DNA of 32,863 bases from the IMG/VR virus record IMGVR_UViG_2700989508_000029. One strand, written 5' to 3'. The notes under the pieces were generated by a model. The model did not search any database, was not told the origin of the DNA, and worked only from the letters and a program-made list of their open reading frames with translations. The position numbers and the translations under genes are program-made. The DNA comes from a virus. Its lineage: Duplodnaviria; Heunggongvirae; Uroviricota; Caudoviricetes. Positions 12,843 through 31,495 of the stretch are shown here, in pieces. Every line of letters begins with the position of its first letter. Position 1 is the first letter of the stretch.

Positions 12843-12898
12843 GTGATAACAGAAGATACAATTTCTTAGAGAAGTTAAGCTAAGTTATTGATTTTCTT

Positions 12899-12916
12899 AA
12901 TGGTGCGATAATAGGA
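12899..12916. repeat. Degenerate internal att copy (junction between the two elements)
   Basis: AATGGTG-CGATAATAGGA differs from AATGGTGCCGATAATAGGA by a 1-nt deletion. Its flanks (TTGATTTT.. / ..AAAACA) also resemble those of the 536-556 copy. Confidence 0.6.
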
Positions 12917-13257: not shown

Positions 13258-13545
13258 TTACTGTCTCTGGCAATCTTTATCGCGATAACGCCTGAAGTAC
13301 CCTCTCGCTTCCTCATCCATACCAAGAGCCGAATGAGTCCGCTTAACTGCCTGTCTTAAATCTCCGAATCTGTCTGTAGTTGCTGGTGGGCGTGCCGCCT
13401 TACGGATACATTCAGAGCGTCTGTTTGCTGCATGTTCACGTTCTTTATCGCCATCTGCCAGCATCATGACTTCTGCCCATCGTGCGGCAGCTCTCCGGTA
13501 TAGCCCTTTTGACTCCAGCTCTTCAGCTTTCCTGTCCTTTATCAT
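13258..13545 (-). CDS. PerC/Pch-family transcriptional regulator-like protein (95 aa)
   Basis: AEELESKGLYRRAAARWAEVM...REHAANRRSEC matches the PerC-family N-terminal pattern I recall (..LE..G.YRRAA.RW..V..). Confidence 0.65.
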   Translation of the reverse strand: MIKDRKAEELESKGLYRRAAARWAEVMMLADGDKEREHAANRRSECIRKAARPPATTDRFGDLRQAVKRTHSALGMDEEARGYFRRYRDKDCQRQ

Positions 13546-13578
13546 TTCTGCCTCTCAGATTATATAGATAAGCAAAAA

Positions 13579-13705
13579 GGTGTTGGTTCAGTTGGTTCAG
13601 TTGGTTCAATTTGTAAAGAGCGTTGTTTTTATTGTGTTTTTTCTAAAATATTGAACCAACATCAACTCATTTTGAACCAACACAGCCCAGCTCTGAACCA
13701 ACAAC
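13579..13705. repeat. Iteron module A (ori/crr-like): 3 tandem GTTGGTTCA, an AT-rich spacer, then 3 TGAACCAAC
   Basis: GTTGGTTCA is at 13582, 13591 and 13600. TGAACCAAC is at 13652, 13673 and 13694. The module is an inverted homolog of 22036-22153. Confidence 0.7.
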
Positions 13706-13755
13706 ACAGCGATAGATTTGCGATTGGTCCGTTATTTTCTGGCTGATATTTGAGC

Positions 13756-13790: not shown

Positions 13791-13804
13791 TATTACTCAC
13801 TGAT

Positions 13805-14245: not shown

Positions 14246-14274
14246 TTGATCAGTGTATAAATGATATTTATCGC

Positions 14275-15725: not shown

Positions 15726-16104
15726 TCACATCAGATACATGTGATTGGTGTACCCGCATAAAACATCGTCATAGCGCGTCCTGTGCGCATATACGCCGAT
15801 AATCAACACATCACCACCACTCTGTCTCGTGTAGAGAACAGTTTCATGGTATCCCCCGCCATCGTGTGCGTACTGGTCGGACGTAGTTGCAAAATTTTTG
15901 CAACTGATACCCCTCGCGCGCGTACTGGTCACGAAATTGGTGTTTTGCTGTGGCAGTGATATCAGAAAAATCTTCCTGTTTCACATAAAGCGGATATGCG
16001 CGTACTGTAACGGCCCCATCAACGGGGATCGGATTTGAAATCCCGACCCAAGCTATGTACCAAATGCCATGTCTTGGATATATGATGATTGCCATTCTAA
16101 ACAA
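15726..16104 (-). pseudogene. Frameshifted small gene, possibly a RelE/ParE-like toxin remnant
   Basis: Two overlapping minus-strand ORFs in different frames (15844-16104 and 15726-15932). The C-terminal piece ...YHETVLYTRQSGGDVLIIGVYAHRTRY resembles the RelE/ParE C-terminal beta-strand/His-Arg pattern. The family assignment is weak. Confidence 0.3.
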
Positions 16105-16121
16105 CGCTAAAGGGGGTTGGT

Positions 16122-16736
16122 GTGAGCAGAAAAGATACTAAAGAATTGCTAACTATCTGCATGGTGTACTTTTCAATTTATTTTTGTGCATACATGATAG
16201 TCCCAGATGAGTTTGAACATGGCAGTATTATTTATTCCATAACATTCTATTTTTTAGAGCTAACACCAATTTTGGCTATCCTTTTGGCAATACATATTTA
16301 TTTTTCCTTAAAAAAAGAATCGACTAATTGGGAGAAGGTATGGAGAGACAGAGGATTTCTAACATCACCTAAAGATGATGCATATGAGAGTGATTTTTCT
16401 GACTTTATAACAAACTACTACTCCAGCGAACAATTCAAAAATAGACTGTCTGATGTTTGGGAAACAGCAATGTATTCCATAGGGATTATATTATTGATAC
16501 TTACTGGTATTGCTCAATATGTTTTTAACATTGACTTATCATTAAATCCTGAAAATTTAATATCGCCATTGATTTTTGGTGAGATATTGATCTTCTCATT
16601 CGGAATTTTCTTGAGTGTTGTTCTCTGCTCATTATGCAAACTACTGACTAACAGGTATCCAGGTGAAGCAAGGAGAGCAAGAAAGGCAAATCCATATTAT
16701 CTTTTATTTCCTAATGGAGACAGCAGAGATATCTAA
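16122..16736 (+). CDS. AT-rich 4-TM membrane protein (204 aa) at the position SieA occupies in P22
   Basis: GTG start with a strong SD (AAGGGGG). There are four hydrophobic helices. The gene converges on the end of the gp16-like gene. Confidence 0.6.
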   Translation: MSRKDTKELLTICMVYFSIYFCAYMIVPDEFEHGSIIYSITFYFLELTPILAILLAIHIYFSLKKESTNWEKVWRDRGFLTSPKDDAYESDFSDFITNYYSSEQFKNRLSDVWETAMYSIGIILLILTGIAQYVFNIDLSLNPENLISPLIFGEILIFSFGIFLSVVLCSLCKLLTNRYPGEARRARKANPYYLLFPNGDSRDI

Positions 16737-16754
16737 GCCATCCATGGCTACCAG

Positions 16755-18860
16755 TTATTGAGCTTCTTTTTGTGATGCCTGTGCGACTCTGGTGAGCGAT
16801 TGTGTGACCGTACTGATCGCTCTGTCATATGCTGTGCTACCTTTTGGCGTATTTGCCAAACGTAACAAGGCATTTCGTATAACAGGGCTTTCGTATGCCT
16901 TCGCGGCTCCGCCTACGGCACCAGCAGCAGGAACAACAAACGCAGCCGTTTTTAGCATCCCCGCTAATACTGCTGCGTTTATGATGCCACCACCAACTAA
17001 CAATCCATAAAGCTGCTGACCATTTAAGTTTTGAACGTTCGCTTTTGCCGCGTGTCTTGTATCGTTGAGGTATTTAATAACGCCGTCCAGTTCCTTTCCA
17101 TGTACGCCTTTAAAGAAAGTTGCTGATTGCTTCCTGTTCCGGTGTAACGCATTAATAAACTTCTCAACACTGATATTTCCAGACGGATCAGTCGCCTTAT
17201 CTACAGCATTCTGAACTATGGCTGCTCGTGCGTTTTGCCTACCATTGTCATCCAGAAGCCTGTAAAGCTGAGAACGTTCTGATGGGCTTTGGCTAAAAAC
17301 GAGTTTTGTTACATCCTCAGGCGTGGCCTTGCCGCTGGCTATTGCCTTTTGAACGCGCGTTCTTCCCATCATGTCATTGAATTTAGACCATGAGCGATCA
17401 ACCCTTGCCATATTAATGGCTTCGTCTGCTCCAAGATTTTTGGCTACGGCTTTTTTCATATCCGCCGTATATGCCTTGTAGATAATATCGCTGGCTTTCT
17501 GGAGCGTATCTTTATCAACAGTGTCAGATGACGCCATAAACCGCTTTCGAAGATCGGTTCTGTTTTCCCTCGCCAGACGCAGGTCATTTGGTCCGCTGGT
17601 GATATCGTCTTTAAATTGCTGCAAGACTTTTACCGCGGCTCTATCCTGAGATTTACCCGGGCGGCTTAACACAGCAATCTGATTGTCGATAGCTTTTACC
17701 GTGTTTGAGAGATCGACAGGGGTATCCCCCATAGCGTCAATTATGCGGTTATATCGCTTTCCTGCTGCCTCAATGAATTTTTGTTGCCCTTTAGTCGCAG
17801 ATTCATAAAGCTGTTTATCAGAAATGCCACCCAGACCATCGCTAAATGTTCTGACTAAATTTTCTCGTGCTTGTTGTTGATTCAGCCGATTCTTACCGGT
17901 TCCAAAAAAAGGAACTCTTTCGCCTAATGTCTGAGCCTGACTCTGCATAAAGGTTTTATCTTTCAGCATGTCACTGGTCATTAACGGCAGATTTCTTTCC
18001 GATGCAAAGTCGACAGCAGCCTTTGCTTCAGGCGACATATCACCACGAACAGCCCTCGAAACCGCACTCGCTGTATTTTCCAGCCCCTTACCAATACCAC
18101 CAATGCCAGCAGAAATTACCGTTTGTAACGGATCAATATCTTCTCCACCAGCAAGGCTAGTGGCTCCCTGTAGTGCTAAATCTGTAGCTGCTGATTTTCC
18201 TATGGCACCAAGCACCGTTCCAGCCCTGCCCGCTGGTGTAAACGCCAGCGCATTAGCCAGAAACGATGCCACGTCTTGCGGCGATAAACCCGGCTTGTTC
18301 AGAGCATAATCACCGGATGGCAGGGAAACGATAGTGTTACCCTTCTCATCCTGCCTTAATTTCGCTCCCATGCTCTGAAGAATCTTTTCCTGAGATGCGT
18401 CAGAGCCGAAAAGTTGAGACCATCGAGCTTTTAGAGCATCCATGCTGAGTGAGGTTAACTCTGGGGCAAGGTCGACATTTTGCAGTCTCTCCATCTCTGG
18501 AGTCATTCGGCTTTCGCCTGTTATAGCATCGCGCATCGCAGCCCCAAGACTGGCTCCCTGTTCTGCTGAACGCTCAAGCCCCTCTCTTTGCTGAGTAGCT
18601 AACTTTGCATACCCTGACGCAAGAGAATTATCAGATGATGTATGTTGAATATTTTGAGTTGCTGATTGGGATCGGTCTATTTCATTCGTTGATGGTAGTG
18701 GATAGGCAGCATAAAAAGCCTGCTTAGCCTGCTCTACACTTTCTCCGGCTTGCGGGGCCACGACTTCATTGAAGTATTGCTCCTGAGCCTGCGCTTTTTG
18801 TTCTGGTGCTAACGCCTGATACTGTGGAGAGGCGATAACATCTTTCCATGCTTTAGCCAT
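16755..18860 (-). CDS. P22 gp16-like DNA ejection/transfer protein (701 aa)
   Basis: It is the third gene of a 225/473/701-aa series, which parallels P22 gp7/gp20/gp16 (about 229/471/609 aa) in order. Its ATG overlaps the upstream stop (TAATG). The N-terminus MAKAWKDVIASPQYQALAPEQKAQAQEQYF is typical of podovirus internal/ejection proteins. Confidence 0.6.
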   Translation of the reverse strand: MAKAWKDVIASPQYQALAPEQKAQAQEQYFNEVVAPQAGESVEQAKQAFYAAYPLPSTNEIDRSQSATQNIQHTSSDNSLASGYAKLATQQREGLERSAEQGASLGAAMRDAITGESRMTPEMERLQNVDLAPELTSLSMDALKARWSQLFGSDASQEKILQSMGAKLRQDEKGNTIVSLPSGDYALNKPGLSPQDVASFLANALAFTPAGRAGTVLGAIGKSAATDLALQGATSLAGGEDIDPLQTVISAGIGGIGKGLENTASAVSRAVRGDMSPEAKAAVDFASERNLPLMTSDMLKDKTFMQSQAQTLGERVPFFGTGKNRLNQQQARENLVRTFSDGLGGISDKQLYESATKGQQKFIEAAGKRYNRIIDAMGDTPVDLSNTVKAIDNQIAVLSRPGKSQDRAAVKVLQQFKDDITSGPNDLRLARENRTDLRKRFMASSDTVDKDTLQKASDIIYKAYTADMKKAVAKNLGADEAINMARVDRSWSKFNDMMGRTRVQKAIASGKATPEDVTKLVFSQSPSERSQLYRLLDDNGRQNARAAIVQNAVDKATDPSGNISVEKFINALHRNRKQSATFFKGVHGKELDGVIKYLNDTRHAAKANVQNLNGQQLYGLLVGGGIINAAVLAGMLKTAAFVVPAAGAVGGAAKAYESPVIRNALLRLANTPKGSTAYDRAISTVTQSLTRVAQASQKEAQ

Positions 18861-20281
18861 TAATCACCCCATAGTGAAGAAAAGTTACTGCTGGCTGCTG
18901 GCTGTGATACCTGCTCAGATTGCGGCAATGTCTGCGACGAAGAAGAAGTTCCTCTGTCAACTGCTGAAATAACCCGCAAAGCATCATAAGCTCGACCAGA
19001 AGCAGCTTTCAGCGAATTGAACTGGTTTTCCATCTTCCGGCGCTTGGTATCAATGGTTTTTGTGGAGTCGCCAGGCTGAGGGAAATACATTTGATAATAT
19101 TTTGACATTTCAGCAGGTACGATGGCTGCCCCTGTTTCCTGACGGAGTATTGCCATTATTGCGTCATTAGCATTAACAACGTATTGCTGTTCTGTTGGGC
19201 TGAGCGTTAAGTTAGCCAGCGTCCCATTACCCAAAGCATTATTAATGATCGCCACTCGCTGTGGGCTAAGCTGGTCTTTCAGTGTATCTATTGAATCAAG
19301 AGCATCCCTAACCCTGTATGCAAATCCAGCAGCTTTTTTAGCCCCTTCTGGCGACTTTTCCATGATCTTTTGGGCTGTTGGCAAAGCTATTGGACGAAAC
19401 CCATCTCCAGATATTGGCTGGTTTAGTTTTCCCTGCTCTTCACTTCCGTCTGTGTAGTATTTTGTGACAGTGCCATCATCGTTTTCTCTAACACTCATTA
19501 ATTTTTTGGCGTTTGTATTAATTCCAGCCGCTGCCGCAAATGCCGCCGCCCCCTCTGGATCCGCCTTTAACATTTGAGCGTACTGATTGTAATTCTGCAT
19601 TGCTGCTGTTGGTGCATATGCTGACGTTAACGCATTTGCTCGGCTAATATCCTGCCCTCTCGCCTGAAGTGCTTCGCCAGCCTGATTGCTGCGGATTGTC
19701 TCTGCCAACTTGCCACGCTCAATATCCCGACCTTCCATTTGATCTTTGATATCGAAATACTTCTCATGACCGAGAGAAAACAGTGCCATACTACCAGCAA
19801 GCCGCTGGAACCCCTGTGGATCATTAACATGCATTTCGGCAACAGACTCAGGAGAAATTCCCAAGCGACGCATTTCATCTTCGTTATCTGCTATGAATTT
19901 TCCAAATGCCCCAGTTCCGAGCGAAGATGCGATTTGAGCACTAGTCGCAAGATGACCAATAGAATTTCTCTGGTCGTCATCAATAAAGCCCATCCCTTTC
20001 TGAACGCTTTCAAATTCTTCTGGATACTCAGAAATAAGACTGCGCATTTTGTTTCTGTCTCCAGACTCAAAAGCCCCGGCATATGCTTTCTGAAACTCTG
20101 CTTTACGCTGTTGTTGACGTGCCTGCTGATTAATCTCAGCAACGCCTCTTAGCCCCTGTAGCGCCATTAAACCTACGTTTGGCTGCTGCTGATACTGCAC
20201 AGGCTGAGGAACGGAAGAACGAGGAGCATTATCATTTTGCGGTGCCATGCTAGGCAGCCCGCCAAGTTGCCATGTCGCCAT
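18860..20281 (-). CDS. P22 gp20-like DNA ejection/transfer protein (473 aa)
   Basis: Size and position fit within the gp7-gp20-gp16 order. It is Q-rich, and both its start and its stop overlap the neighbouring genes. Confidence 0.6.
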   Translation of the reverse strand: MATWQLGGLPSMAPQNDNAPRSSVPQPVQYQQQPNVGLMALQGLRGVAEINQQARQQQRKAEFQKAYAGAFESGDRNKMRSLISEYPEEFESVQKGMGFIDDDQRNSIGHLATSAQIASSLGTGAFGKFIADNEDEMRRLGISPESVAEMHVNDPQGFQRLAGSMALFSLGHEKYFDIKDQMEGRDIERGKLAETIRSNQAGEALQARGQDISRANALTSAYAPTAAMQNYNQYAQMLKADPEGAAAFAAAAGINTNAKKLMSVRENDDGTVTKYYTDGSEEQGKLNQPISGDGFRPIALPTAQKIMEKSPEGAKKAAGFAYRVRDALDSIDTLKDQLSPQRVAIINNALGNGTLANLTLSPTEQQYVVNANDAIMAILRQETGAAIVPAEMSKYYQMYFPQPGDSTKTIDTKRRKMENQFNSLKAASGRAYDALRVISAVDRGTSSSSQTLPQSEQVSQPAASSNFSSLWGD

Positions 20282-20958
20282 TAGAATCCAAGCCCCCCAA
20301 CAAGACCAATAAGCCCACCACCAATAGCGCCGGCCGCAGTTCCTATTCCAGGAACAACGGAACCAAGTTGCGCACCCGCTAAAGCGCCTGATGCTGCCCC
20401 ACCAATACCACGCGCAAGACTGGATGGCTGCTGCGCCTGACCTGCACGAATAGCGCCAAGCCCCTGCAAGAGTTGTCCGGTATTATTGGCGTAGTTTTGC
20501 CCTGCCGTTGCCTGCCCTGATGCCGCATTCATCCCGACATTTAGCAGGTTTCCATAATTTTGCATTTGCCCACTAAGCCAATTGTTATAAAGCATGGGCG
20601 CAATGGAAGATAACTGGTTACTGGTAGCTGTTGAGCCAAGCCCCCCGGTAGCTTCTGCTGAGACAAGGTTCTGATAACGGGCCTGATCTGCCTGTGTTTT
20701 ATATAAACCAGAACCAAAGAAATCATTCGCTGCTTTATTCTGCCCTTCCAGAGTCATCAGTCCTTGTAGTTGTTGTAAAGCAGGCAATCCGACTTCTGCA
20801 TACGGCTTGAGATTATTCATCACCGTATTCCACTGCTCGCGCTGCAAATCAATTGCCTGCTGCTGGGCCTTCGCCTGAGCTTTAGAGGCACCACCATCAC
20901 CGCCTTTTTCGTATACGGCACGATTGAGATGTTTATGAGCTATATGGGTAATTAACAT
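20281..20958 (-). CDS. P22 gp7-like DNA ejection/transfer protein (225 aa)
   Basis: The N-terminus ...RAVYEKGGDGGASKAQAKAQQQA... resembles the P22 gp7 N-terminus I recall (..YPEKGGKGG..). The body is Q/G/N-rich with a Gly-rich hydrophobic C-terminus. Confidence 0.6.
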   Translation of the reverse strand: MLITHIAHKHLNRAVYEKGGDGGASKAQAKAQQQAIDLQREQWNTVMNNLKPYAEVGLPALQQLQGLMTLEGQNKAANDFFGSGLYKTQADQARYQNLVSAEATGGLGSTATSNQLSSIAPMLYNNWLSGQMQNYGNLLNVGMNAASGQATAGQNYANNTGQLLQGLGAIRAGQAQQPSSLARGIGGAASGALAGAQLGSVVPGIGTAAGAIGGGLIGLVGGLGF

Positions 20959-21413
20959 TCGCTGAATTCCTTATATTGTTGCCGAGTTAACTGATAAAGC
21001 GTTACGCCGACGGGTTTACCACATCTGATATAAGCATCATCAAGGTGACCAACACGGGTAGCGCCAAGCAAACGGATAATTGCCCGTCCGTATTTCGTGG
21101 TGTCAGGAACCATAGTGATGCTGTTAAGGAATGGTGAGTTTTCGAGAAGCCATTTGCAGAATAATCGATGTCCTTGCAGTGCATATTCACCACGGAATCC
21201 GGGGTCGTACACCGCATGGCATTCAACAACGCTATGCCAGAAGCTACGCACTTCATGAACGCCAGCCAGCACCAATCCTTCGTAGATGCCGAGATATACC
21301 GCATCAGGCTTGATGTAGTACGTGTGCCCCGGCTCAACAATATTTTCGGTATTGCCTGGCTCGTTAAGAAAGGCCTGTAATCGCACAGGGTTATCAATAA
21401 ATTTTAGTTCCAT
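20952..21413 (-). CDS. P22 gp14-like (DUF2824-type) protein (153 aa)
   Basis: It lies immediately upstream of the gp7-like gene with a 7-nt overlap, and its size matches gp14. The call is by position and size only. Confidence 0.45.
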   Translation of the reverse strand: MELKFIDNPVRLQAFLNEPGNTENIVEPGHTYYIKPDAVYLGIYEGLVLAGVHEVRSFWHSVVECHAVYDPGFRGEYALQGHRLFCKWLLENSPFLNSITMVPDTTKYGRAIIRLLGATRVGHLDDAYIRCGKPVGVTLYQLTRQQYKEFSEC

Positions 21414-21429
21414 GCGATGCCATCCATTT

Positions 21430-21591
21430 TCACATACAGCCTGCCAGCGCCTTATCTATTAACCCTCGTGCAATTTCATGCAGAGTTGGCGCTACTCCAA
21501 TTCCTGATTTTTTACGCTGCTCTTCCTGAATTTTCTTTATCGCTTCCATTTGCTTCTCACTTATCAATACCGGCTTTACTGAAATAGCCAT
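21430..21591 (-). CDS. Unlisted small RHH (Arc/Mnt/CopG-like) protein (53 aa, MAISVKPVLISEKQMEAIKKIQEEQRKKSGIGVAPTLHEIARGLIDKALAGCM)
   Basis: I translated this by hand. A strong SD (AAGGGGG) lies 5 nt before the ATG, and the sequence fits a beta-alpha-alpha pattern. It is the first gene behind the LexA-box promoter. Confidence 0.45.
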   Translation of the reverse strand: MAISVKPVLISEKQMEAIKKIQEEQRKKSGIGVAPTLHEIARGLIDKALAGCM

Positions 21592-21604
21592 AACGCCCCC
21601 TTAG

Positions 21605-21630
21605 AACTGTATAAAACAACAGTTATTATA
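21605..21630 (-). promoter_or_regulatory. TATAAT -10 element abutting a LexA-type SOS box (AACTGT-TGTTTTAT-ACAGTT)
   Basis: The minus strand reads TATAAT-AACTGTTGTTTTATACAGTT. The CTGT-N8-ACAG core is perfect, about 15 nt upstream of the SD of the RHH gene. Confidence 0.5.
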
Positions 21631-21685
21631 GTTTCACAAATCGCAATATTCATCATAGTAATTGCAAAATATGAAACAAATAGCA

Positions 21686-21719
21686 CAAAAAAATGCCACC
21701 GCTCAGTAGCTGGTGGCAT
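21686..21719 (-). terminator. Rho-independent terminator insulating the alpha operon/iteron region from the ejection-protein operon
   Basis: On the minus strand, an ATGCCACC-N11-GGTGGCAT hairpin is followed by T7. Confidence 0.6.
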
Positions 21720-22035
21720 CGTTCTGTGTGTCAGGTTTTGACAGGTTTTTTATGGACTCTAAAAACTATATTTATGGTGTCGCATTACTCTTCACGGCAG
21801 GCGCTTTTCAGTTCTGCCCTTGCTTCTGGCTCCATTGGTAATTTGATTCGCGATCAGCTATGCGGATGGTTTGCTGAACAGGCATAACAACTTCTCAGAG
21901 GCTGTTTTTTGAACTGCGAAAATTTCGTAGTGCTCACTTTCAAAAACGTCACGCCCTTGTACACAGGATTTTACGAAAGTCTCGTAAAACACTCTCTGAT
22001 GCCAGCCAGGTGTTGTGCGCATCAATTCAGTCACA

Positions 22036-22153
22036 TTGTGTTGGTTCAAAATACCGTGTTGTTGGTTCAGTGTTGGTTCAATAAAAAGAATAAAATCCTT
22101 ATAAAACAATACACTTTACAAATTGAACCAACTGAACCAACTGAACCAACACC
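22036..22153. repeat. Iteron module B (crr-like), inverted homolog of 13579-13705, just downstream of the primase-helicase gene
   Basis: GTTGGTTCA is at 22040, 22061 and 22072. TGAACCAAC occurs three times in tandem at 22124-22150. The terminal ~40 bp are the exact reverse complement of 13579-13620. Confidence 0.7.
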
Positions 22154-22175
22154 TTTTCTACGCACATGAAGAAGC

Positions 22176-24935
22176 TCATTCTTCAGATGAGTTATAATCT
22201 CCTGGCTGGTAATTGAGTACATAAACGTTTATTTGTCGTCCCTGAATACGTGGTGATTTTCTTTGGTATCCACGACCGCTGTTTGGTGGGGTTAGCATCC
22301 CGGCTTTTTTCAACACTTCAGCAAACTGTTTTGCGTTGAAACCACATGCGATCTCCTTTTCAAATGTGGCCGGGAATGTGTAGAAAATCATTGGGCTTTC
22401 GTCATGTTCTCCACGCTGACGGTATCCGGCTAAATCTTTGATGGGCAAATCTGCCGGGCTGTATGGAAATGGTGCAAAACGGCTAAGCCCATAGGCATTA
22501 AGAAATGCCTCCGTTTGTTCAATAATCTGCTGATGCTCTTTGTTACCTGTGCCGAACTCGCGCAACCATGCGTTATAGCTGTGCTGTATCGCATCACGGC
22601 ATGTCTGAGCATCCCAGCCTGTTACAACCTCGCCTAACAACAATGCGGCCTCCATAATGGCAAATCGCGCGGCTACACGGTGAACCTGCTCACCATAATC
22701 GGATGGGATCAGGCTTCTCCATCTGCTTTCGCAATCACGAACGGTTTTAATAGCCTGTTGCTGGTGGTGTGCCAGCCATTTAATCCACTCACGCCCGGAC
22801 GCGCCGTGGTGATGCTGGTAAGCGTCTTTCAGTGCGTCTGCGTGCTGTTTTCCGTTCTGGTAATCGTGAAAGCGTACTGCTTTACTCAACGGAATATTCA
22901 GCAGTCGCACCAGTTGCCCGGCTTTGGTTTTTCGCCCGGAAGTAGCGATAAATGTTTCTAAATCCATTTCTCCGGTGCTGATTGCCACTGTACGCCAGCG
23001 TTTTAGATCCCGGTTTCCACCATCTTTAGCGCCTTGCAGTTTCCCTACACCGTTAAATAACGCATAGGCAGACTGTGAAACGCTGACAGGATCAGCGCCC
23101 TGACCAACTTCATCAAGCGGCATTAGTCCGTCATTGTGGGCGGCGGCCTCATTTGCCAGCCCCAGCGCGGTTCCGTACCACGTCAGCCGCAGTAAATCAG
23201 GGTTGCCGTATAAGCTGCTCGCCACGTTTGCCGTGGTGGTCTTACCTGCGCTCGACTGCTCATAGAAATGAATGCCGAACCCGTCAGCGCCCACCAGCCC
23301 AATCAATGGCGCTGCCAGTGCTGCGCCGATCCCGGTCATCATTGAATAGTTACCAAAGGCCAGACGCGCCACGTTATCACGCCAGCTTTTCGCGCTCCCT
23401 GAGACGGTATATCCGGCTGCGGCTGAGCTTCTCCCGCTGAACAGCACAGGATTTTCAGGTGTTCCGATGATTTCCCCATCAGGCATGATGTACGCTCCGC
23501 ATTGCCAGCCAGTGGCATGAGCAACACGCCACAATTCACGAGAGCCACTGCGTTGTAGCCAGTCTGCCAGTATTGCTCTGAGGCTGCTTTTGGTCGTGAC
23601 ATTTACCCCACCAGCTTTAAGTGTGCGCCATCCTTCACGTTCACCAATATCAGCCAGTGGAATGGCAGCGGTTGTCGGCGTTTCAGAACCAAACGACAGC
23701 CAGCGAAGAATGAGATACTGGTCTTTATCGTCTCTGCCAGTACCGATAACGCTTAACGGAGAACATAACCAGCTTTCGTTATTGATGATTTCTCCACTCT
23801 GGCTGTCAGCTCTCGGAGATACCCAATAAATACCATCCTCGCGGCTTTCTATTCTTGGTTTCAGTGGGTCGGTATCCATAACCTTAAAATCGCTTCCCTC
23901 AATGGTCTGTGGCTCCTGTTTCACGCCATTACCCTGTGGTTGGTACATTGACTTATTGAACGCTTCTGTGGCGCATTTAATGCCGTGTTTTTGGTGGTAA
24001 TCATTCCAGTCTGCTTTGTGATCTGTCGGGGGTAATGCCACCCATCCAGAAACAGATAAAGCTGCTTTTTCTGCTGCTATTCTCCCCGTGTTTTGTCTTC
24101 CTTCGCTGTGGTCGTTATCCGCAGCAATGATGATTTGTGCTGAAGGAAATTTATCCCGCAGTACCTGGGCGACATATAACAGGTTCCCGGCATCAATCGC
24201 CGCCACTGTCAGCGCCTCTGGACGAATTAAATGGGCAGATAATGCCGTTGCCAGACCTTCTGCGATTAAGATGCTCTGTGTTGTTTCTGGTGCGTTTATG
24301 GCGTGATATGCCCCCCGCTTTGCTGAACCTGTCAGGAGTCTTTTTTCACCATGTGAGGTAATAGTCTGTGCTGCTGTTACTGCGCCGGATTTATCCACCA
24401 GCGCCAGCAACAGAGATCCATCGGGCAACACGGGGAATGTAAAATCACCTACCCCTTTCGCAACCAGATAATCAGATTTGCCGTTTACAGCCTTTCTGCG
24501 CATGTCATCAAACTGACGGGAAAACGTATCCCGTCTTTGTTGTTCGTCCTTCTCTGCCCTTTTCAGGCGCTCCTGTTCGCGTCGCTGGCGCTCGGTTTCC
24601 AGTTGTTCCCGTTTCTGGCTGGTGGCTTCTGGTGTTTCCGTTGTCCGGTAATCAATACCCAGAACATCAGCGGCAAGAAGCGCCGCCTCTGTTGTGTCGC
24701 AGTTATTTACGCGTTTAATTAAATCCAGCCCATCACCAGCGCCGCACTGATTACAGATGAAGCTACCGCGCCCGTTGTCATCGAACCGGAATCGATCTTT
24801 GCCCCCACATGCAGGGCAGGGAGCATGACGGCGCGGAGAGTCAGGGACATTTATGTTCAGGCAGCCCAGCACATGAGGCCAGTTGTTTTCAGACGCACTG
24901 ATAACCTGACGGATAAGATCAATGTTTCGCATCAC
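22176..24935 (-). CDS. P4 alpha-like primase-helicase (Zn-ribbon + Toprim + DUF927/P-loop), 919 aa
   Basis: Cys4 zinc ribbon: CPACGGKDRFRF...FICNQCG. Toprim motifs: IAEGLATALS and IIIAADNDHSEG. P-loop: EQSSAGKTT. Confidence 0.9.
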   Translation of the reverse strand: MMRNIDLIRQVISASENNWPHVLGCLNINVPDSPRRHAPCPACGGKDRFRFDDNGRGSFICNQCGAGDGLDLIKRVNNCDTTEAALLAADVLGIDYRTTETPEATSQKREQLETERQRREQERLKRAEKDEQQRRDTFSRQFDDMRRKAVNGKSDYLVAKGVGDFTFPVLPDGSLLLALVDKSGAVTAAQTITSHGEKRLLTGSAKRGAYHAINAPETTQSILIAEGLATALSAHLIRPEALTVAAIDAGNLLYVAQVLRDKFPSAQIIIAADNDHSEGRQNTGRIAAEKAALSVSGWVALPPTDHKADWNDYHQKHGIKCATEAFNKSMYQPQGNGVKQEPQTIEGSDFKVMDTDPLKPRIESREDGIYWVSPRADSQSGEIINNESWLCSPLSVIGTGRDDKDQYLILRWLSFGSETPTTAAIPLADIGEREGWRTLKAGGVNVTTKSSLRAILADWLQRSGSRELWRVAHATGWQCGAYIMPDGEIIGTPENPVLFSGRSSAAAGYTVSGSAKSWRDNVARLAFGNYSMMTGIGAALAAPLIGLVGADGFGIHFYEQSSAGKTTTANVASSLYGNPDLLRLTWYGTALGLANEAAAHNDGLMPLDEVGQGADPVSVSQSAYALFNGVGKLQGAKDGGNRDLKRWRTVAISTGEMDLETFIATSGRKTKAGQLVRLLNIPLSKAVRFHDYQNGKQHADALKDAYQHHHGASGREWIKWLAHHQQQAIKTVRDCESRWRSLIPSDYGEQVHRVAARFAIMEAALLLGEVVTGWDAQTCRDAIQHSYNAWLREFGTGNKEHQQIIEQTEAFLNAYGLSRFAPFPYSPADLPIKDLAGYRQRGEHDESPMIFYTFPATFEKEIACGFNAKQFAEVLKKAGMLTPPNSGRGYQRKSPRIQGRQINVYVLNYQPGDYNSSEE

Positions 24936-27440: not shown

Positions 27441-27962
27441 TTGACAAAGGCGCTGGATTATACACCAACGCCCAAAAAATGGGTGAGTCAGACCTACGAC
27501 ATAAAAAAAGACGCTCGGCGCGTCATATGTCGCCATTCGATTTACCAGGACGCCAATCCCGGCACCCGTTTTATGAGGTGCCTTATAACCATAAACCGTG
27601 TTGCCGCATAACGGCAAGCTCTTTTTTATGGACTCCGAAAACTCGCTATTGGAAGCACCAGATGCACAGTACATCGCGCTCATTTCGTTAACGTCACGCA
27701 CGTGGACGAATGTTTTTGTGGAGTCACTACACGAGCGGAAGACATCATCTACGACCAGAAATTTTCTGGCGCAGCCGCTGACCTTCTCAATGCTAATATC
27801 ATCGCCCGAGATTTCTGACATAGTTAAGGCATCCGCTCCTACCACCAGCAAATGATAAACTTTGCTTGTATCTGCTGTATTAATGCCTGACTTTGCTGTC
27901 ATATTGCTGGATTTTGGCGACATACCAGCCAGTGAAAATGTCTTCTTCTGGGCGGTTAGCAT
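27326..27962 (-). CDS. N-terminal/central part of the 355-aa read-through ORF (ash-family-like sequence); coding status uncertain
   Basis: The ATG at 27962 is coupled to the upstream stop (ATGCTAA). The stretch KTGAGIGV...[30 protein letters not shown] resembles ORFs annotated as ash family. There is no in-frame stop until 26895, so the 3' end given here is nominal. Confidence 0.35.
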
Positions 27963-28976: not shown

Positions 28977-29408
28977 TTAGGCGGCGTTAAACGCGTCCGG
29001 GTAGAGTTTCAGAATGTCGGCAATTTCCTGCTGAGAAAGTCCGTTGTGATCATTTATGTTCGCAAGATGGTTAATATGAGTGATCACTTTCAGAACATCA
29101 CCACGGCAGGAGAAACGGTAGCGAAGGTGTGTTCCGATACCATCAGGATTCTTTTCGTCGATACGCTCCAGAGTGATTCCAAGCTGGCGTTCTAACTCTG
29201 TTGCATAGTTACGACCAGAAGACAGACGGCAGTAGCGAAGAATGTCATTTTCTGTCCATCCCTCTATACCAGTACGCAGCATATAGACTCTGGCACGATG
29301 CTTTTTCGGTGTGCGCTTTGGTGCTTGAAGGGATTTTGTAAGGGGCGTAACATCAGATACACGAATATCTGAATTAGCCGCCTGTAATGGGCGGTTTTTC
29401 TTTTCCAT
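28977..29408 (-). CDS. Hypothetical protein (143 aa)
   Basis: The ATG shares one nucleotide with the alpA stop (TGATG). No family recognised. Confidence 0.5.
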   Translation of the reverse strand: MEKKNRPLQAANSDIRVSDVTPLTKSLQAPKRTPKKHRARVYMLRTGIEGWTENDILRYCRLSSGRNYATELERQLGITLERIDEKNPDGIGTHLRYRFSCRGDVLKVITHINHLANINDHNGLSQQEIADILKLYPDAFNAA

Positions 29409-29611
29409 CAAGCCACCTCGTCTCTAGATTCTAATATACACTTCTCAATCCATTCATCTATTTCAGACTCAACAAAAGCAATTGCCCGACTTCCAATTTT
29501 TACCTGTTTAGGGAACCTCCCCTGACTAATAAGACGATAAATCCATGCTTTGCTATAACCAGTTCGCCTTTGAACTTCAGAGAGACGAATTAATGAATTG
29601 TAATTAGCCAT
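29408..29611 (-). CDS. alpA: AlpA/Vis-family excisionase-type transcriptional regulator (67 aa)
   Basis: LIRLSEVQRRTGYSKAWIYRLISQGRFPKQVKIGSRAIAFVESEIDEWI is a canonical AlpA-family HTH. It lies next to a P4-type integrase. Confidence 0.85.
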   Translation of the reverse strand: MANYNSLIRLSEVQRRTGYSKAWIYRLISQGRFPKQVKIGSRAIAFVESEIDEWIEKCILESRDEVA

Positions 29612-30039: not shown

Positions 30040-31254
30040 TCATGCGTGTTTTTCAAACACCATATGCACCACATTTCCGCCATGCTCGAGAGAATCCATA
30101 TAGTCGGCATACCATTGAAGCATCTCCCGCCTTCCATCCAGATATTGCGCATGGTTGTATGTGCCACGAATTGAGTTCTTATCAACGTGAGCGAGCTGCG
30201 TTTCTATCCACGCGGTGTTATAGCCCTGCTCATGCAAAATCGTACTCATAGTGTGCCGGAACCCATGACCAGTTACACGTCCAGCGTAGCCAATGCGCTT
30301 AAACACTTGGTTTATGCTGGCCTCGCTCATTGTTTTCCTTGGATCATTGCGCCCGGGAAACATAAGAGGGTAATTGCCTGTTATTTCTCTAATCTTCCCA
30401 ATAAGCGAAAGAGCCTGCTCAGACAATGGCACAATATGAGTCCGCCGCATTTTCATACGTGAAGCGGGTATCTCCCAGATAGCCTTGTTGAAATCAATTT
30501 CATCCCATAATGCGCCACGTAGTTCGCCAGTCCGCAAGCCGGTGATAATCAGTAGACGAGCCGCCATAACAACCAATGCGCTTCCTGAGTAACTGGACAA
30601 TGCCTTGAAAAAATCAGGTAATTCTTTGGCTGTAAGGAAAGGGTAATGATTAGATTCATGGCCTTGCATCGCGCTAGTAAGGTCTGGTGCAGGGTTATAC
30701 TCTGCGCGACCAGTGACTATTGCATAGCGGAAAACTTCCCCGCACCGTTGCCTCACTTTTTTGGCTTTTTCTGTAGCACCGCGCCCCTCGATGCGACGCA
30801 GCACATTCAGAAGTTCAAGTGGTTTGATTTCGGCGATGGGTTTTTTGCCAATGTAAGGGAACACATCTTTGTTGAAGGCTTCGAGGATGTCTGAAGCATA
30901 ACCAGCAGACCATTTTTTTAATTTGCTGCTGTGCCACTCAAGGGCAATATCTTTGAAGGTGTTGTTTAACTGCGTTTCCCGGGCAATCTTTTCCTCTCGT
31001 TTCGCTTCCATCGGATCGATACCACCAGCGATACCTCTTTTCGCATCTTCACGTTTTGCCCGAGCATCGGCTAGAGTAACCTCAGGATAAACACCTAGTG
31101 CCAATAGCTTCTCTTTACCAGCTACACGATATTTAAGTCGCCAGTATTTACCTCCATTAGGTTTTACCAAGAGATACAAACCGCCACCATCGGCCAGCTT
31201 GTAAGCCTTCTCTTTTGGCTTGGCTGTGTCTATTTGACGGGCATTGAGTTTCAC
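30040..31254 (-). CDS. P4-family tyrosine integrase (404 aa, GTG start)
   Basis: The N-terminus KLNARQIDTAKPKEKAYKLADGGGLYLLVKPNGGKYWRLKYR is the DUF4102/P4-int signature. C-terminal motifs are GLRTGELRG, HGFRH and IRGTYNH. It lies immediately downstream of thrW in the same direction. Confidence 0.92.
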   Translation of the reverse strand: MKLNARQIDTAKPKEKAYKLADGGGLYLLVKPNGGKYWRLKYRVAGKEKLLALGVYPEVTLADARAKREDAKRGIAGGIDPMEAKREEKIARETQLNNTFKDIALEWHSSKLKKWSAGYASDILEAFNKDVFPYIGKKPIAEIKPLELLNVLRRIEGRGATEKAKKVRQRCGEVFRYAIVTGRAEYNPAPDLTSAMQGHESNHYPFLTAKELPDFFKALSSYSGSALVVMAARLLIITGLRTGELRGALWDEIDFNKAIWEIPASRMKMRRTHIVPLSEQALSLIGKIREITGNYPLMFPGRNDPRKTMSEASINQVFKRIGYAGRVTGHGFRHTMSTILHEQGYNTAWIETQLAHVDKNSIRGTYNHAQYLDGRREMLQWYADYMDSLEHGGNVVHMVFEKHA

Positions 31255-31402: not shown

Positions 31403-31419
31403 TTGGGGAGATGTTTGAA

Positions 31420-31495
31420 TGGTGCCGATAATAGGAGTCGAACCTACGACCTTCGCATTACGAATGCGCTGCTCTACCAACTGAGCTATATCGGC
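31420..31495 (-). tRNA. thrW: tRNA-Thr (anticodon CGU)
   Basis: The reverse complement reads GCCGATATAGCTCAGTTGGTAGAGCAGCGCATTCGTAATGCGAAGGTCGTAGGTTCGACTCCTATTATCGGCACCA. It has a cloverleaf, a TTCGTAA anticodon loop, GGTTCGA in the T-loop and an encoded CCA. It is adjacent to proA, as in E. coli. Confidence 0.95.

Follow-up and report, generated by a model that had tools for sequence, protein, structure and literature searches.

A P22-like ejection-protein cassette in an EcCIMP1-family phage satellite, and what it may be for

A 32,863-nt stretch of viral DNA (IMG/VR record IMGVR_UViG_2700989508_000029; the whole stretch is called the window here) carries, inside an E. coli island, genes for ejection proteins (E-proteins) of the kind found in phage P22, namely gp7, gp20 and gp16, together with a gene for gp14. 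Why should a satellite keep such genes? Because a functional helper already supplies E-proteins, the benefit of the cassette has to be inferred. The cassette lies at window positions 16755-21413, on the minus strand, and consists of intact P22-like homologues:

20952..21413, minus strand: gp14 homologue (DUF2824) of the Kapi1 type, 153 aa; PF11039 4e-61, phrog_651 2.5e-66
20281..20958, minus strand: gp7 homologue (ejection protein), 225 aa; PF25688 (P22_gp7) 6.6e-73, phrog_598
18860..20281, minus strand: gp20 homologue, ejection protein, 473 aa, mosaic; PF16928 (Inj_translocase) 4.5e-58
16755..18860, minus strand: gp16 homologue, inner-membrane-associated ejection protein, 701 aa; phrog_770 ("DNA transfer protein") 3.1e-161

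All four matches lie far beyond chance. The homologue of gp20, the ejection protein that forms a periplasmic tube, also matches phrog_917 over its full length (4.8e-112, PHROGs), and a PF26808 (Phage_P22_gp16) match is precomputed for a protein identical to the 701-aa gp16. Successive reading frames overlap by 7, 1 and 1 nt at their start and stop codons. The initial annotation had described an intact P22-type set free of decay, a gp7-like N-terminus resembling that of P22 and the loss of the surrounding late genes, and it was right on each point. The gp7 alignment sets AVYEKGGDGG of the window against SYPEKGGKGG of P22; no portal, coat, gp4/10/26 or tailspike gene is found in the window; and DNA similarity to phages stops exactly at 21413, the gp14 start codon.

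The four proteins differ in their affinities. The window gp14 is 97% identical to the copy in the satellite EcCIMP1, 83% to Kapi1_055 of the P22-like phage Kapi1 and 23% to P22 gp14, while the values for gp7 are 99% (EcCIMP1), 57% (Kapi1) and 55% (P22). The gp16 homologue is only 30% identical to P22 gp16, and 76% identical to the gp16 of a P22-like prophage in Citrobacter freundii.

The element carrying the cassette had been taken for a P4-like satellite. It is a phage satellite at thrW, but since psu, delta and sid are absent from the island, it is not a canonical P4-like one; it is an AlpA-type PICI of the EcCIMP1 family. Its limits lie at approximately 12917-31417, the att core GATAATAGGA, read on the opposite strand, gives the TCCTATTATC described for EcCIMP1, and tRNA-Thr(CGT) occupies 31420-31495. 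Its main features are:

12898..12916: attL, with the core GATAATAGGA at 12907-12916 (empty-site comparison, exact repeats)
13258..13545, minus strand: PerC-family regulator near the distal end of the island (PF06069 3.1e-33)
13575..13707: second iteron module, inverted, at the distal end of the cassette and accessory segment
14275..15297, minus strand: AbiD/Abi_2 abortive-infection gene (PF07751 2.3e-52; PADLOC AbiD 6.9e-58)
22037..22157: replication origin, with three GTTGGTTCA iterons, an AT-rich spacer and three inverted copies
22176..24935, minus strand: primase/helicase, 919 aa (Zn-ribbon, Toprim_3, DUF927)
27354-27441, minus strand: C4-type antisense RNA (RF01695, 79.5 bits in Rfam, above the gathering score)
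27504-27581, minus strand: isrK (RF01394, 67.1 bits in Rfam, above the gathering score)
29408..29611, minus strand: AlpA-family regulator (PF05930 7.4e-20)
30040..31254, minus strand: tyrosine integrase (Arm-DNA-bind_3, Phage_int_M, Phage_integrase)
31418..31438: attR, inside the 3' end of thrW (empty-site comparison, exact repeats)

In EcCIMP1, an AlpA-family protein is the master regulator (PMC11773190). The C4-type RNA and isrK resemble the immunity RNAs of P4 and P1. The origin lies directly 3' of the primase gene, and its iteron is shared by islands from every genus examined. A 55-nt arm of the second iteron module is 95% complementary to 22103-22157, and this module is also present in other family members; the cassette thus does lie between two iteron modules, as first described. 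The AbiD/Abi_2 gene sits in the variable accessory region of the island.

The slot occupied by the cassette is headed by a small gene and a candidate control region:

21430..21591, minus strand: 53-aa protein heading the slot, identical to the EcCIMP1 copy (WP_001018524.1)
21592..21720, minus strand: putative cassette promoter region and upstream terminator (sequence features)

A terminator-like hairpin (21710-21695) lies upstream of the cassette and is followed in the putative promoter region, which is of the TATAAT type, by a GCAAT-N13-ATTGC dyad (21665-21643), TGAAACTATAAT (21636-21625) and an ACTGT-N8-ACAGT dyad (21623-21606). Conservation of this region extends beyond E. coli to Serratia, Klebsiella, Rahnella and further genera; together with the terminator, it would insulate the cassette transcriptionally. 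Homologues of the 53-aa protein are confined to Enterobacterales and always lie directly upstream of virion-protein genes, with 24 invariant columns over 12 homologues and a dN/dS of 0.13. Of the RHH gene, promoter and terminator first proposed for the cassette, the reading frame, hairpin and promoter region are present, but the RHH fold is unsupported: there is no Pfam match even at E<=5, Foldseek returns nothing significant and the AF2 model consists of two helices. An RHH-type regulator is possible but unproven.

Is the cassette, then, incidental cargo that acquired a promoter, as initially suggested? Comparison with other islands indicates a fixed slot behind a conserved putative promoter and 53-aa gene in 13 genera. 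Primase homologues (53-99% identical) lie upstream of the 53-aa gene in all 18 of the species surveyed. In these species, which belong to 13 genera, the slot is variously filled by P22 E-proteins, internal virion proteins, a tape measure protein, a baseplate hub or a tail fibre. The P22-type module itself is known from two chromosomal sites, one of them yicC-dinD, and is accompanied by any of three types of primase; gp14 and gp7 may be present or missing. It recurs in Serratia, Citrobacter-type and Leclercia islands. Because the same module is found at yicC-dinD, recombination at thrW between co-resident elements, which had been proposed as its origin, is not needed.

A truncated P22-like prophage was considered as a source of the locus and rejected, as homology ends at the gp14 ATG and the module recurs across sites, primase types and genera. 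A genuine remnant, at argW in O157:H7, differs from the island cassette: it has a shorter gp20 (378 aa) and a needle pseudogene, and lacks gp16 and the small gene.

Between island copies, dN/dS is 0.14 for gp16 (against island L003), 0.10 for gp7 and 0.23 for gp14 (the last against EcCIMP1), ratios that indicate purifying selection on the cassette. The N-terminal ~160 codons of gp20 differ between the window and L003, while the C-terminal half is nearly identical; this half, gp16 and the downstream envelope gene form one recombination unit. At least three different gp20/gp16 allele pairs occur among the islands, all intact. The two genes are found together in every P22-type island examined except L027, where gp16 has an IS66 insertion, and L022, where no gp16 was called; gp14 and gp7 are optional.

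The envelope gene downstream of gp16 bears on a further possibility, that the E-genes were dragged in from a P22-like prophage together with a selected sieA and are heading for decay:

16122..16736, plus strand: SieA homologue, polytopic membrane protein, 204 aa, convergent with gp16

This protein shares 34% identity with HS1 type B SieA, whose function has been validated by experiment (E 2e-9 and 3e-11 in two comparisons), and 29% with P22 SieA (E 5e-7). It has 4-5 hydrophobic segments and carries a motif, LTNRYPGEARRARK, that agrees with the published FnRYPnEAnnFNK. In a true P22-like prophage, a homologue with 50% identity is flanked by gene 16 on one side and Arc/Ant/tailspike on the other. 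By homology and position, the membrane protein adjoining gp16 is thus a SieA homologue, and it occupies the place where sieA canonically lies. The window gp16 and sieA appear to derive together from one phage lineage, gp16 is disrupted in occasional copies, and the thrW attachment site is common to P22 and the island, all of which speaks for a passive origin. However, E-genes are kept in islands that have no SieA homologue (EcCIMP1, Serratia, Citrobacter-type, L002/L003), a dedicated putative promoter and small gene are conserved in 13 genera, none of the allele pairs is broken, the dN/dS values are low (0.10-0.23) and the O157:H7 remnant looks different. Non-functional hitch-hiking is therefore highly improbable; it is largely refuted, and the comparative data essentially exclude decay of the cassette.

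The initial annotation had also offered a superinfection-exclusion module combining the membrane protein with the E-proteins. The first part fits the SieA homology. The second is superfluous: P22 SieA is sufficient by itself for exclusion, so the E-proteins need not take part. Given the apparent common lineage of gp16 and sieA, the island's own conduit is probably sensitive to its own SieA. Published work places SieA escape in the C-terminal parts of gp16 and gp20; at the published escape positions, no recognisable change is seen in the window gp16, where the alignment is unreliable at such divergence.

What, then, is the cassette for? In 2025, EcCIMP1 was shown to be mobilised by Kapi1; both AlpA-dependent excision and transduction occurred with this P22-like phage only, and transduction was very inefficient (~5e3 particles per ml) (PMC11773190). 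Its authors saw "DNA transfer/DUF2824-like" genes and gave no interpretation (PMC11773190). The window island shares with EcCIMP1 a common backbone, an identical 53-aa protein, 97-99% identical gp14 and gp7, and the same att core, and is best explained as a satellite of P22-like podoviruses.

A second line of evidence is a putative packaging signal:

27708..27814, plus strand: non-coding copy of P22-type terS (gene 3) nt 268-374

This ~107-nt gene 3 fragment has no start codon and begins exactly where the pac site does, annotated at nt 4-25 in the P22 record. It is 86% identical to P22 (genome nt 9-110) and 92% to the terS of E. coli phage Bas106, and its phage matches all fall inside terS at 268-374 (117/117). 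Some 270 E. coli genomes contain the fragment only, always with identical ends. A terS fragment is present at 12 of 16 informative P22-type loci, whereas all 18 loci whose slot has other content lack one (0 of 18). In one island the fragment is of the Kapi1 type, and in Serratia islands, which have gp20-gp16, neither of the two types tested was detected. With the transduction of EcCIMP1 by Kapi1, the pac-region copy makes a P22-like satellite supplying its own ejection proteins the best supported of the three options first raised.

The reading we prefer, at about even probability, is that particles built by the helper receive a matched injection conduit from the satellite. Once lytic growth of a P22-like helper begins, the island would excise and replicate from its iteron origin, the helper terminase would recognise it through the pac copy and package it by the headful mechanism, and island E-proteins would reach helper procapsids along the usual scaffold-dependent route. 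Incorporation of E-proteins takes place during procapsid assembly and depends on the scaffolding protein, not on the portal, and published work shows that foreign E-proteins assemble into P22 virions. In the same body of work, gp16 and gp20 work only as a cognate pair, with gp7 interchangeable; island-delivering particles would carry a satellite-specified conduit with mutually matched gp20 and gp16. The need for a matched pair fits the joint presence of gp20 and gp16 in the islands, their movement as one recombination unit, and the distance of the EcCIMP1 pair from that of its helper, which is far greater than for gp14 and gp7. The likely benefit is island entry independent of the helper's E-protein alleles, and hence the use of different helpers. 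Particles might also enter cells whose resident P22-like prophages block injection by gp16/gp20-directed exclusion; such lysogens would be the recipients where the satellite meets its next helper. While the island is integrated, its SieA homologue would, along with AbiD, shield the host against superinfection by P22-like phages. Several observations weigh against this reading: the inefficient transduction of EcCIMP1, the probable sensitivity of the island's conduit to its own SieA, the window gp16 without recognisable change at the escape positions, the lack of a detected terS fragment in Serratia islands, and the gp16 disrupted in L027 and uncalled in L022.

Particles assemble without E-proteins but cannot infect without them, so these proteins are complementable in trans. 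The cassette might therefore let the satellite use defective or cryptic P22-like prophages without functional ejection genes. Disrupted E-genes do exist in prophages (an IS21 insertion in a C. freundii gp20; the decayed O157:H7 argW remnant), most island carriers lack an intact cognate helper, the second AlpA/Xis-like gene of EcCIMP1 can likewise stand in for the helper excisionase, and the EcCIMP1 authors proposed the same logic for alpA_1 (PMC11773190). But nothing singles out E-genes as the defect that should limit cryptic prophages, the strong divergence of the pair from helper alleles is left unexplained, and so are the tape measure and hub genes in the slot elsewhere, unless the logic is generalised. 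Such insurance is doubtful.

The main rival to a satellite-specified conduit, tentative though less doubtful than insurance, is the poison-subunit defence raised at the outset: the island's heterotypic gp20 and gp16 would co-assemble into procapsids of an infecting or induced P22-like phage and leave it without a working conduit, yielding non-infectious progeny and protecting the population. Related islands would use their tape measure, hub, fibre or internal virion proteins as decoys in the same manner, and the effect is likened to that of PICI Tai systems, which block tail assembly. A capsid with mixed E-protein sets might be harmed rather than helped, since gp16 and gp20 do not function when mismatched. 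A P22 hybrid with only gene 16 of Sf6 gave no plaque-forming phage, its non-functional virions containing Sf6 gp16, and neither did one with only Sf6 gene 20; the EcCIMP1 proteins are just 26% (gp20) and 23% (gp16) identical to those of Kapi1, its own helper, against 83% for gp14 and 57% for gp7. The slot lies downstream of pri, where PICIs have a recognised hot-spot for immune genes that houses Tai genes, defence genes (SieA and AbiD) flank the slot, diverse structural proteins fill it, and EcCIMP1 shows an unexplained anti-Kapi1 phenotype (PMC11773190).

Against this, the infectious Kapi1 titre on induction is not lowered by EcCIMP1 (PMC11773190), and the island's own DNA would fare equally badly in poisoned particles. 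One mismatched protein would be enough, yet a matched gp20-gp16 pair, often with all four genes, is kept under purifying selection. The packaging-signal type correlates with slot content, as expected for helper exploitation, although shared host ecology could also explain this; and Tai proteins are not homologues of virion proteins.

The preferred reading gains in generality from other genera, where the slot, behind the same putative promoter and small gene, holds other envelope-penetration or DNA-delivery proteins; two of these variants, the tail fibre and the baseplate hub, do not strictly count as ejected conduit proteins. What is new here for this family of satellites is the SieA homologue, the non-coding copy of the pac region, the purifying selection on a cassette that follows a conserved putative promoter and an invariant 53-aa protein, and the range of slot contents across 18 species of 13 genera.

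Each of the four open reading frames in the minus-strand cassette at 16755-21413 encodes a homologue of a member of the P22-type ejection-protein (E-protein) cassette. In the initial annotation, ORFs of 153, 225, 473 and 701 aa were read as a set in the order of P22 gp14-gp7-gp20-gp16, and both the coordinates and the profile matches agree with that reading. The homology to podovirus ejection proteins, which had been set as a check, is borne out by Pfam or PHROG matches for all four ORFs.

Features of the cassette and its surroundings (positions in the window)
20952-21413, minus strand: gp14 homologue, 153 aa; DUF2824 (P22 gp14 family), PF11039, 4e-61, 148 of 151 profile positions
20281-20958, minus strand: gp7 homologue, 225 aa; PF25688 P22_gp7, 6.6e-73
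18860-20281, minus strand: gp20 homologue, 473 aa; PF16928 Inj_translocase, 4.5e-58 (N-terminal domain)
16755-18860, minus strand: gp16 homologue, 701 aa; phrog_770 'DNA transfer protein', 3.1e-161
16122-16736, convergent with gp16 and directly after it: membrane protein, 204 aa; SieA homologue by sequence
22037-22157: iteron module 1, adjoining the 3' end of the primase gene; GTTGGTTCA three times in one orientation and three times in the other, with AT-rich DNA in between
13575-13707: iteron module 2, inverted duplicate of the module at 22037-22157

In the PHROG search, the match of the gp20 homologue to phrog_917 spans its full length. The gp7 homologue is 55% identical to P22 gp7, and alignment of the two proteins shows that the N-terminal motif given in the initial annotation was correct. 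The gp16 homologue shares 30% identity with P22 gp16 over 482 aa (E 3e-50); it gave no match in our own Pfam profile scan of the cassette proteins, and a PF26808 (Phage_P22_gp16) match is precomputed on an identical protein. The starts and stops of adjacent ORFs overlap by 7, 1 and 1 nt in the order 14-7-20-16, and this order with coupled starts and stops is the arrangement in P22 and in Kapi1, the P22-like helper phage of the island EcCIMP1. The similarity of the DNA to phage genomes stops precisely at the start codon of gp14 (21413). The island has no genes for head, tail or tailspike, so the surrounding P22 late genes are missing, as had been stated, and the cassette proteins have no match in PADLOC.

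The island that carries the cassette is ~18.5 kb long and ends in copies of the thrW 3' end, with the att core GATAATAGGA at 12907 and 31427; its limits were set by comparison to an empty thrW site and to strain 97-3250. The window is E. coli DNA, with 100% identity to genomes of O26-type STEC. Starting at the tRNA end, the island encodes an integrase, AlpA, a 144-aa protein, an AntA-type antirepressor, DUF4222 and an 'ash' region, then several small genes, a Zn-ribbon/Toprim/DUF927 primase and an iteron origin, and finally the cassette, the membrane protein, AbiD, a 146-aa protein and PerC. The 146-aa ORF (13805-14245), which has no family, is kept beside PerC in E. coli islands with differing accessory genes. 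The 'ash family' ORF (26895-27962) overlaps a C4 antisense RNA (27354-27441) and isrK (27504-27581). Because its Phage_ASH match covers the RNA genes, this ORF may be no real gene but a translation artefact of an immunity region that works through RNA; its opposite strand carries a pac-like fragment. In strain 97-3250 an IS600 (31418-32888 of that locus) splits alpA in an island copy that is otherwise 99.9% identical, and that copy is therefore probably not inducible. Beyond the island, another insertion is delimited by a third att copy, at 545. This tandem second element at thrW (563-12896, ~12.3 kb, low GC, att copies at 545 and 12907) encodes an integrase (612-1976), a Dit-like tail protein (2057-2770), a capsid-E-like protein (4937-5965), a 609-aa unknown protein and an HTH protein, and is missing from strain 97-3250.

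The initial description of the element as a P4-like satellite stands in part. The integrase carries Arm-DNA-bind_3, Phage_int_M and Phage_integrase domains, a combination that we take to be P4-type, AlpA is recognised by Phage_AlpA (7e-20), and the C4 antisense RNA is a CI/C4-type immunity RNA (Rfam RF01695, 79.5 bits). As in P4-like satellites of P2-like phages, a large primase is followed by the origin, and there are accessory defence genes. The primase has the Zn-ribbon and Toprim_3 domains of an alpha-type primase-helicase, but its C-terminal domain is DUF927, and DUF5906 in sister islands. The label itself fails because its defining genes, psu, delta and sid, are missing: a Pfam scan gave no family match to them among all annotated island CDS. 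A canonical P4-like satellite is thus ruled out. There is also no P2-type cos, and the helper, a podovirus, packages by the headful mechanism; whereas the hijack genes of P4-like satellites are regulators of capsid size and late genes, the module of the island consists of ejection proteins. The layout of a Gram-negative PICI is present, with co-oriented int and alpA at one end, pri followed by an iteron origin, flanking att sites and a length in the 10-20 kb range. Pfam and PHROG scans found no packaging-hijack module (TerS, Ppi, Rpp, Cpm) in the island.

The closest described element is EcCIMP1, a 19,963-bp PICI of E. coli MP1 (Pick, Stadel and Raivio, ISME J 2025, PMC11773190). EcCIMP1 is located at the tRNA-Thr gene beside proA with the att core TCCTATTATC, is excised only with the P22-like phage Kapi1, for which its own alpA and int are required, and is transduced by Kapi1 at low frequency (PMC11773190). 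Terminase and capsid genes were not found in it by its authors, who scored it as a 'Type C' PICI (PMC11773190). It adds to superinfection immunity in an unexplained way, no known defence system having been detected by the authors (PMC11773190).

The island in the window has the same attachment site and att core as EcCIMP1, and the same gene order: int, alpA, antA, DUF4222, the ash region, small genes, the TOPRIM/DUF927 primase, the 53-aa gene, DUF2824, gp7, gp20, gp16 and then PerC. The pac-like fragment and the iterons are also the same, and several protein accessions are identical between the two (WP_001018524.1, WP_000181940.1 and WP_000476150.1). Because the MP1 locus has this backbone, an identical 53-aa protein and gp14 and gp7 that are 97-99% identical, the island is an EcCIMP1-family PICI, and the helper type is thus known experimentally for its family. 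The differences lie elsewhere. The N-terminal domain of EcCIMP1 gp20 has 48% identity to that of the window, its gp16 is a 906-aa SLT-containing protein unrelated to the 701-aa gp16 of the window, and a lipoprotein stands where the window's island has the SieA homologue; the latter island has AbiD and lacks the second alpA/xis gene.

A recently truncated P22-like prophage with the same junctions was an alternative raised with the initial annotation. Comparative genomics is against it in sites, primases and genera and in the appearance of a real remnant, and it is ruled out by the recurrence of the module in varied contexts together with the end of homology at the gp14 start. In E. coli the module occupies two sites, thrW and yicC-dinD, and it is found with DUF927, truncated DUF927 or DUF5906 primases. 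It takes two forms, the small gene followed by 14-7-20-16 or by 20-16 only. The 53-aa gene is followed by gp20-gp16 in Serratia and by the full four-gene set in Citrobacter-type islands, and a search of 5426 complete E. coli genomes for the marker region that precedes the cassette found it in 573. Comparison of island copies with one another gives dN/dS values of 0.14 (gp16), 0.10 (gp7), 0.23 (gp14) and 0.13 (small gene); gp16 is damaged in a few copies (loci L027 and L022). A real decayed P22-like remnant lies at argW (tRNA-Arg) in E. coli O157:H7 strain 7636 (12176-16324 of locus L029). What is left there is intS, gp7, gp14, a gp20 of reduced length (378 aa) and a pseudogene of the tail needle; gp16 and the small gene are missing. 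Its DNA is 90-95% identical to gp14-gp7 of the island.

The late segment 14-7-20-16-sieA of Lederbergvirus phages (P22, Kapi1, HS1, Bas106) resembles the cassette in its genes, order and translational coupling, as well as in its convergent gene in the sieA slot and its mosaic gp20/gp16 alleles. The island copy differs in being cut exactly at the gp14 start, without needle, tail, head or tailspike genes, and in standing behind an island-specific promoter and small gene, whereas the phage segment belongs to a Q-antiterminated late transcript. A sensitive comparison of the island with P22 and Kapi1 revealed no similarity to late promoter or qut regions; apart from two weak and short matches to Kapi1, DNA similarity is confined to the att core, the gene-3 fragment and the E-genes.

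Upstream of the cassette lie the 53-aa ORF (21430-21591), a T-run hairpin that resembles a terminator (21710-21695) and a region of TATAAT type. This agrees with the upstream terminator and own promoter noted earlier, both as predictions. The 'RHH gene' proved to be only partly right: the ORF exists and its sequence pattern fits RHH, but the fold has no profile or structural match. No Pfam match appeared even at E<=5, and Foldseek against PDB gave nothing significant (best match E=5.4). The AF2 monomer has a disordered N-terminus and two helices (pLDDT 76). The protein is confined to Enterobacterales. Comparison of the cassette leader with Rfam returned a chance miRNA match only. A predicted promoter of the same layout precedes the small gene at every surveyed locus and is missing from candidate helpers; its conserved dyads were sought in Kapi1, P22 and Bas106 and are absent, and there is thus no evidence of a helper-encoded factor acting there.

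The two iteron modules reported to flank the cassette are real (22037-22157 and 13575-13707). These inverted GTTGGTTCA sets bracket the cassette and the accessory segment, and the paired layout is kept in the DUF927-primase islands checked, from E. coli to Klebsiella, Serratia and Citrobacter-type islands, while DUF5906-primase islands retain the distal set only. A further motif, GAGTCCAWAAAA, occurs in exactly two copies per E. coli island, at 21748-21759 and 27624-27635 (minus) in the window. The first precedes the terminator, ~150 nt ahead of the small gene, and the second stands ~40 nt ahead of isrK. There are two copies in the Serratia island, three in L015, one in its Citrobacter-type relative L016, and none in the Klebsiella michiganensis island. 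This motif may be a shared promoter element.

The position behind the conserved promoter and small gene, referred to here as the slot, was surveyed across Enterobacterales with the 53-aa marker in one genome per species. Eighteen loci in 13 genera were found, all with the same primase family upstream, and P22 coat, portal and terminase genes were absent from all 18.

Content of the slot in different genera
Escherichia, Leclercia adecarboxylata: P22 E-genes
Two Klebsiella species, Leclercia sp., Pectobacterium: three large internal-virion or lytic-domain proteins
Chimaeribacter (direct test), Pantoea and Erwinia (by clustering): 108-aa protein and full-length tape measure protein
Cedecea: lytic tail or internal virion protein
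Raoultella, K. michiganensis: 605-aa injection-transglycosylase-like protein
Rahnella: baseplate hub
Acerihabitans: tail fibre

The first two proteins of the Pectobacterium slot belong to another PHROG family than those of the Klebsiella set. The majority of the slot proteins penetrate the envelope or form a DNA conduit. After the 605-aa gene of the K. michiganensis island, an ORF (12143-12649 of that locus) has an N-terminus like the HTH of small terminases and excisionases (phrog_57, 4.5e-9), and its product may be a satellite TerS in that lineage.

Judged by sequence, the 204-aa membrane protein after gp16 is a homologue of SieA. It shares 34% identity (E 2e-9) with the experimentally tested type B SieA of HS1 and 29% (E 5e-7) with P22 SieA, and matches phrog_7745 weakly (4e-4). 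The cytoplasmic motif FnRYPnEAnnFNK reads LTNRYPGEARRARK in the window, FNRYPGEARKFNK in HS1 and FGRYPGEANGFNK in P22, and the hydropathy profile, with 4-5 predicted hydrophobic segments, has a pattern like that of P22 and HS1 SieA. A tblastn search of the phage collection gave no match to a SieA-like protein, the identity having come via HS1 and the context of a Citrobacter freundii prophage. The C. freundii protein, the sole relative found outside E. coli (50% identical), belongs to a complete P22-like prophage, where its gene is flanked by gene 16 on one side and Arc/Ant/tailspike on the other; the gp16 of that prophage has 76% identity to the one in the window. In the C. freundii prophage of locus L019, otherwise complete, an IS21-family element (13512-15313) interrupts gp20, leaving a helper-type prophage with a broken ejection gene. 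In every case examined in detail by Leavitt et al., sieA was in a P22-like prophage (PMC10461980). For a protein identical to the SieA homologue of the window, six contexts were examined here, and each of them was a PICI. After gp16, every other island variant likewise has a gene for an envelope protein, as does Kapi1, be it a small polytopic membrane protein, a lipoprotein, a single-TM protein or a secreted protein.

A 'key and lock' relationship, in which the E-proteins of the island resist its own SieA, was dropped, as a single phage lineage appears to have passed on gp16 and sieA jointly. The SieA-escape positions in the gp16 of the window, in a highly divergent alignment, gave no support for resistance. 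Neutral hitch-hiking of the cassette with sieA is contradicted by the comparative data and is very improbable.

The gene content of the islands mirrors a published requirement for matched pairs. SieA blocks injection, and mutations that escape it fall in the C-terminal regions of gp16 and gp20, two proteins that work only as a cognate pair (PMC10461980). P22 hybrids with Sf6 gene 16 alone or Sf6 gene 20 alone gave no plaque-forming phage, and virions of the gene 16 hybrid contained Sf6 gp16; gp7 is interchangeable, and complete foreign E-protein sets are functional in P22 (PMC10461980). Correspondingly, gp20 and gp16 are together in every P22-type island examined except the damaged L027 and L022, while gp14 and gp7 are optional. 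Breakpoints in gp20 follow its conserved N-terminal domain, and thus its C-terminal half, gp16 and the envelope gene travel together. Between EcCIMP1 and its helper Kapi1, identity is 26% for gp20 and 23% for gp16, against 83% for gp14 and 57% for gp7.

The island also has a 107-nt piece of P22-type terS at 27708-27814 (plus strand), a putative packaging signal here called the pac copy or gene-3 fragment. In the sensitive island-P22 comparison, 27713-27814 matches nt 9-110 of the P22 genome at 86%; the match to the E. coli phage Bas106 extends from 27708, and the EcCIMP1 fragment matches P22 from nt 4. The P22 record places pac at nt 4-25, inside gene 3 (small terminase), in agreement with the literature, where pac is a 22-bp asymmetric site within the TerS gene. 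The homology starts at the first base of the pac core, the preceding 12 nt being at chance level, and stops at gene-3 nt 374, and the start codon is missing. Within the 22-bp core, the island matches P22 or Bas106 at 15-17 positions, the two phages themselves agreeing at 15; the core is nearly invariant among islands, and the next 85 nt match at 75-82 positions. All 117 phage matches to the fragment lie inside terS at 268-374. Among E. coli genomes, a complete terS of P22 type is present in 258, and ~270 contain the fragment only, its ends being the same each time.

Of the informative islands whose slot holds P22-type E-genes, 12 out of 16 have the fragment, whereas all 18 islands with another content lack it; these loci are not phylogenetically independent. 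The packaging specificity of the island appears to come from a cis-acting pac copy, as opposed to the satellite TerS of SaPI/PICI modules. The TerS of Kapi1 is unrelated to P22 gp3, which may explain the very low transduction of EcCIMP1 by Kapi1. One island, L016, has a 37-nt fragment (15999-16033) that is 92% identical to Kapi1-type terS, in the place where the relatives of this Citrobacter-type island (L015, L017 and L018) carry the P22-type gene-3 fragment; this is possibly a swapped packaging signal.

The reading that we favour, and regard as evenly poised, is that the particles which the helper builds, and which package the island via the pac copy, receive from the island a matched set of conduit proteins. 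E-proteins load at procapsid assembly, for which the scaffolding protein is required and the portal is not. Particles built by the helper would take up island DNA through the pac copy, and the matched conduit proteins of the island would join them at procapsid assembly. The satellite would gain independence from the E-protein alleles of its helper and possibly also entry into cells that exclude P22-type injection. A variant of such exploitation, in which the cassette complements defective helpers, seems rather improbable.

The main rival, interference with the helper by heterotypic subunits, is unlikely. EcCIMP1 does not lower the titre of Kapi1 (PMC11773190), complete matched sets are kept even though one mismatched protein would suffice, and the island itself would ride in the poisoned particles; these points weigh against it despite the deadness of mismatched gp16/gp20 pairs and the location of the slot 'downstream of pri', an immune hot-spot established through work on Tai systems (tail assembly inhibition; He et al., Nat Commun 2024, PMC11364771). 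The island and the Tai systems share this PICI hot-spot, a concern with phage virion components and a possible protection at the population level (PMC11364771). Tai systems are single accessory genes that are not homologous to virion proteins (PMC11364771), whereas the island has a multi-gene set of virion proteins behind a conserved promoter, and the sole relevant experiment for its family, the Kapi1 titre with EcCIMP1, shows no interference.

Returning to the supply of matched conduit proteins, a wider form of it can be put forward tentatively, with some doubt: a family of Enterobacterales satellites would have a promoter-defined slot, refilled with delivery proteins of the helper type, and a cis copy of the packaging signal, and would thereby re-equip helper particles. 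The slot would hold ejection proteins where the helper is a podovirus, a tape measure protein where it is a siphovirus, and hub or internal virion proteins elsewhere. A possible gain would be passage through injection-blocking superinfection exclusion in helper lysogens, the recipients that the satellite most needs.

Satellites are known to resize capsids, redirect terminases, make their own capsids and steal tails. In capsid-forming PICIs and in the SaPI/PICI modules (TerS, Ppi, Rpp, Cpm), morphogenetic functions of the satellite follow the replication module and redirect helper particles; modules of the TerS/Ppi/Rpp/Cpm type act on capsid size or terminase specificity. We know of no capsid-forming PICI or SaPI/PICI packaging module that encodes DNA-ejection proteins and, to our knowledge, no satellite brings its own DNA-injection proteins. 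The family of the element is already described and the cassette genes have been glimpsed before. As far as the searchable literature shows, recognition of these genes as a full P22 E-protein set, SieA on a PICI and the pac copy are undescribed, as is a conserved promoter/small-gene slot with helper-type-specific delivery proteins across Enterobacterales. The mode of satellite piracy is potentially new.

If the proposal is true, it would be a new category of molecular piracy, exerted at the entry step and not on capsid size or terminase specificity. Should the E-proteins of the island enter virions, satellite and helper would also come into conflict at the entry step, a new arena for them, and the extreme allelic diversity of gp16 and gp20 would have a functional rationale. 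The findings bear on three open points about EcCIMP1: its packaging route (a pac copy mismatched with the unrelated TerS of Kapi1), the nature of its "DNA transfer-like" genes, and a possible basis of satellite-linked immunity, the envelope gene in the sieA slot. They also extend the known range of sieA from prophages to PICIs. Finally, the upstream region of the module is carried by ~10% of complete E. coli genomes, O26-type STEC strains among them, and an element this common probably has consequences, in strains of clinical relevance, for gene flow and for susceptibility to phages.
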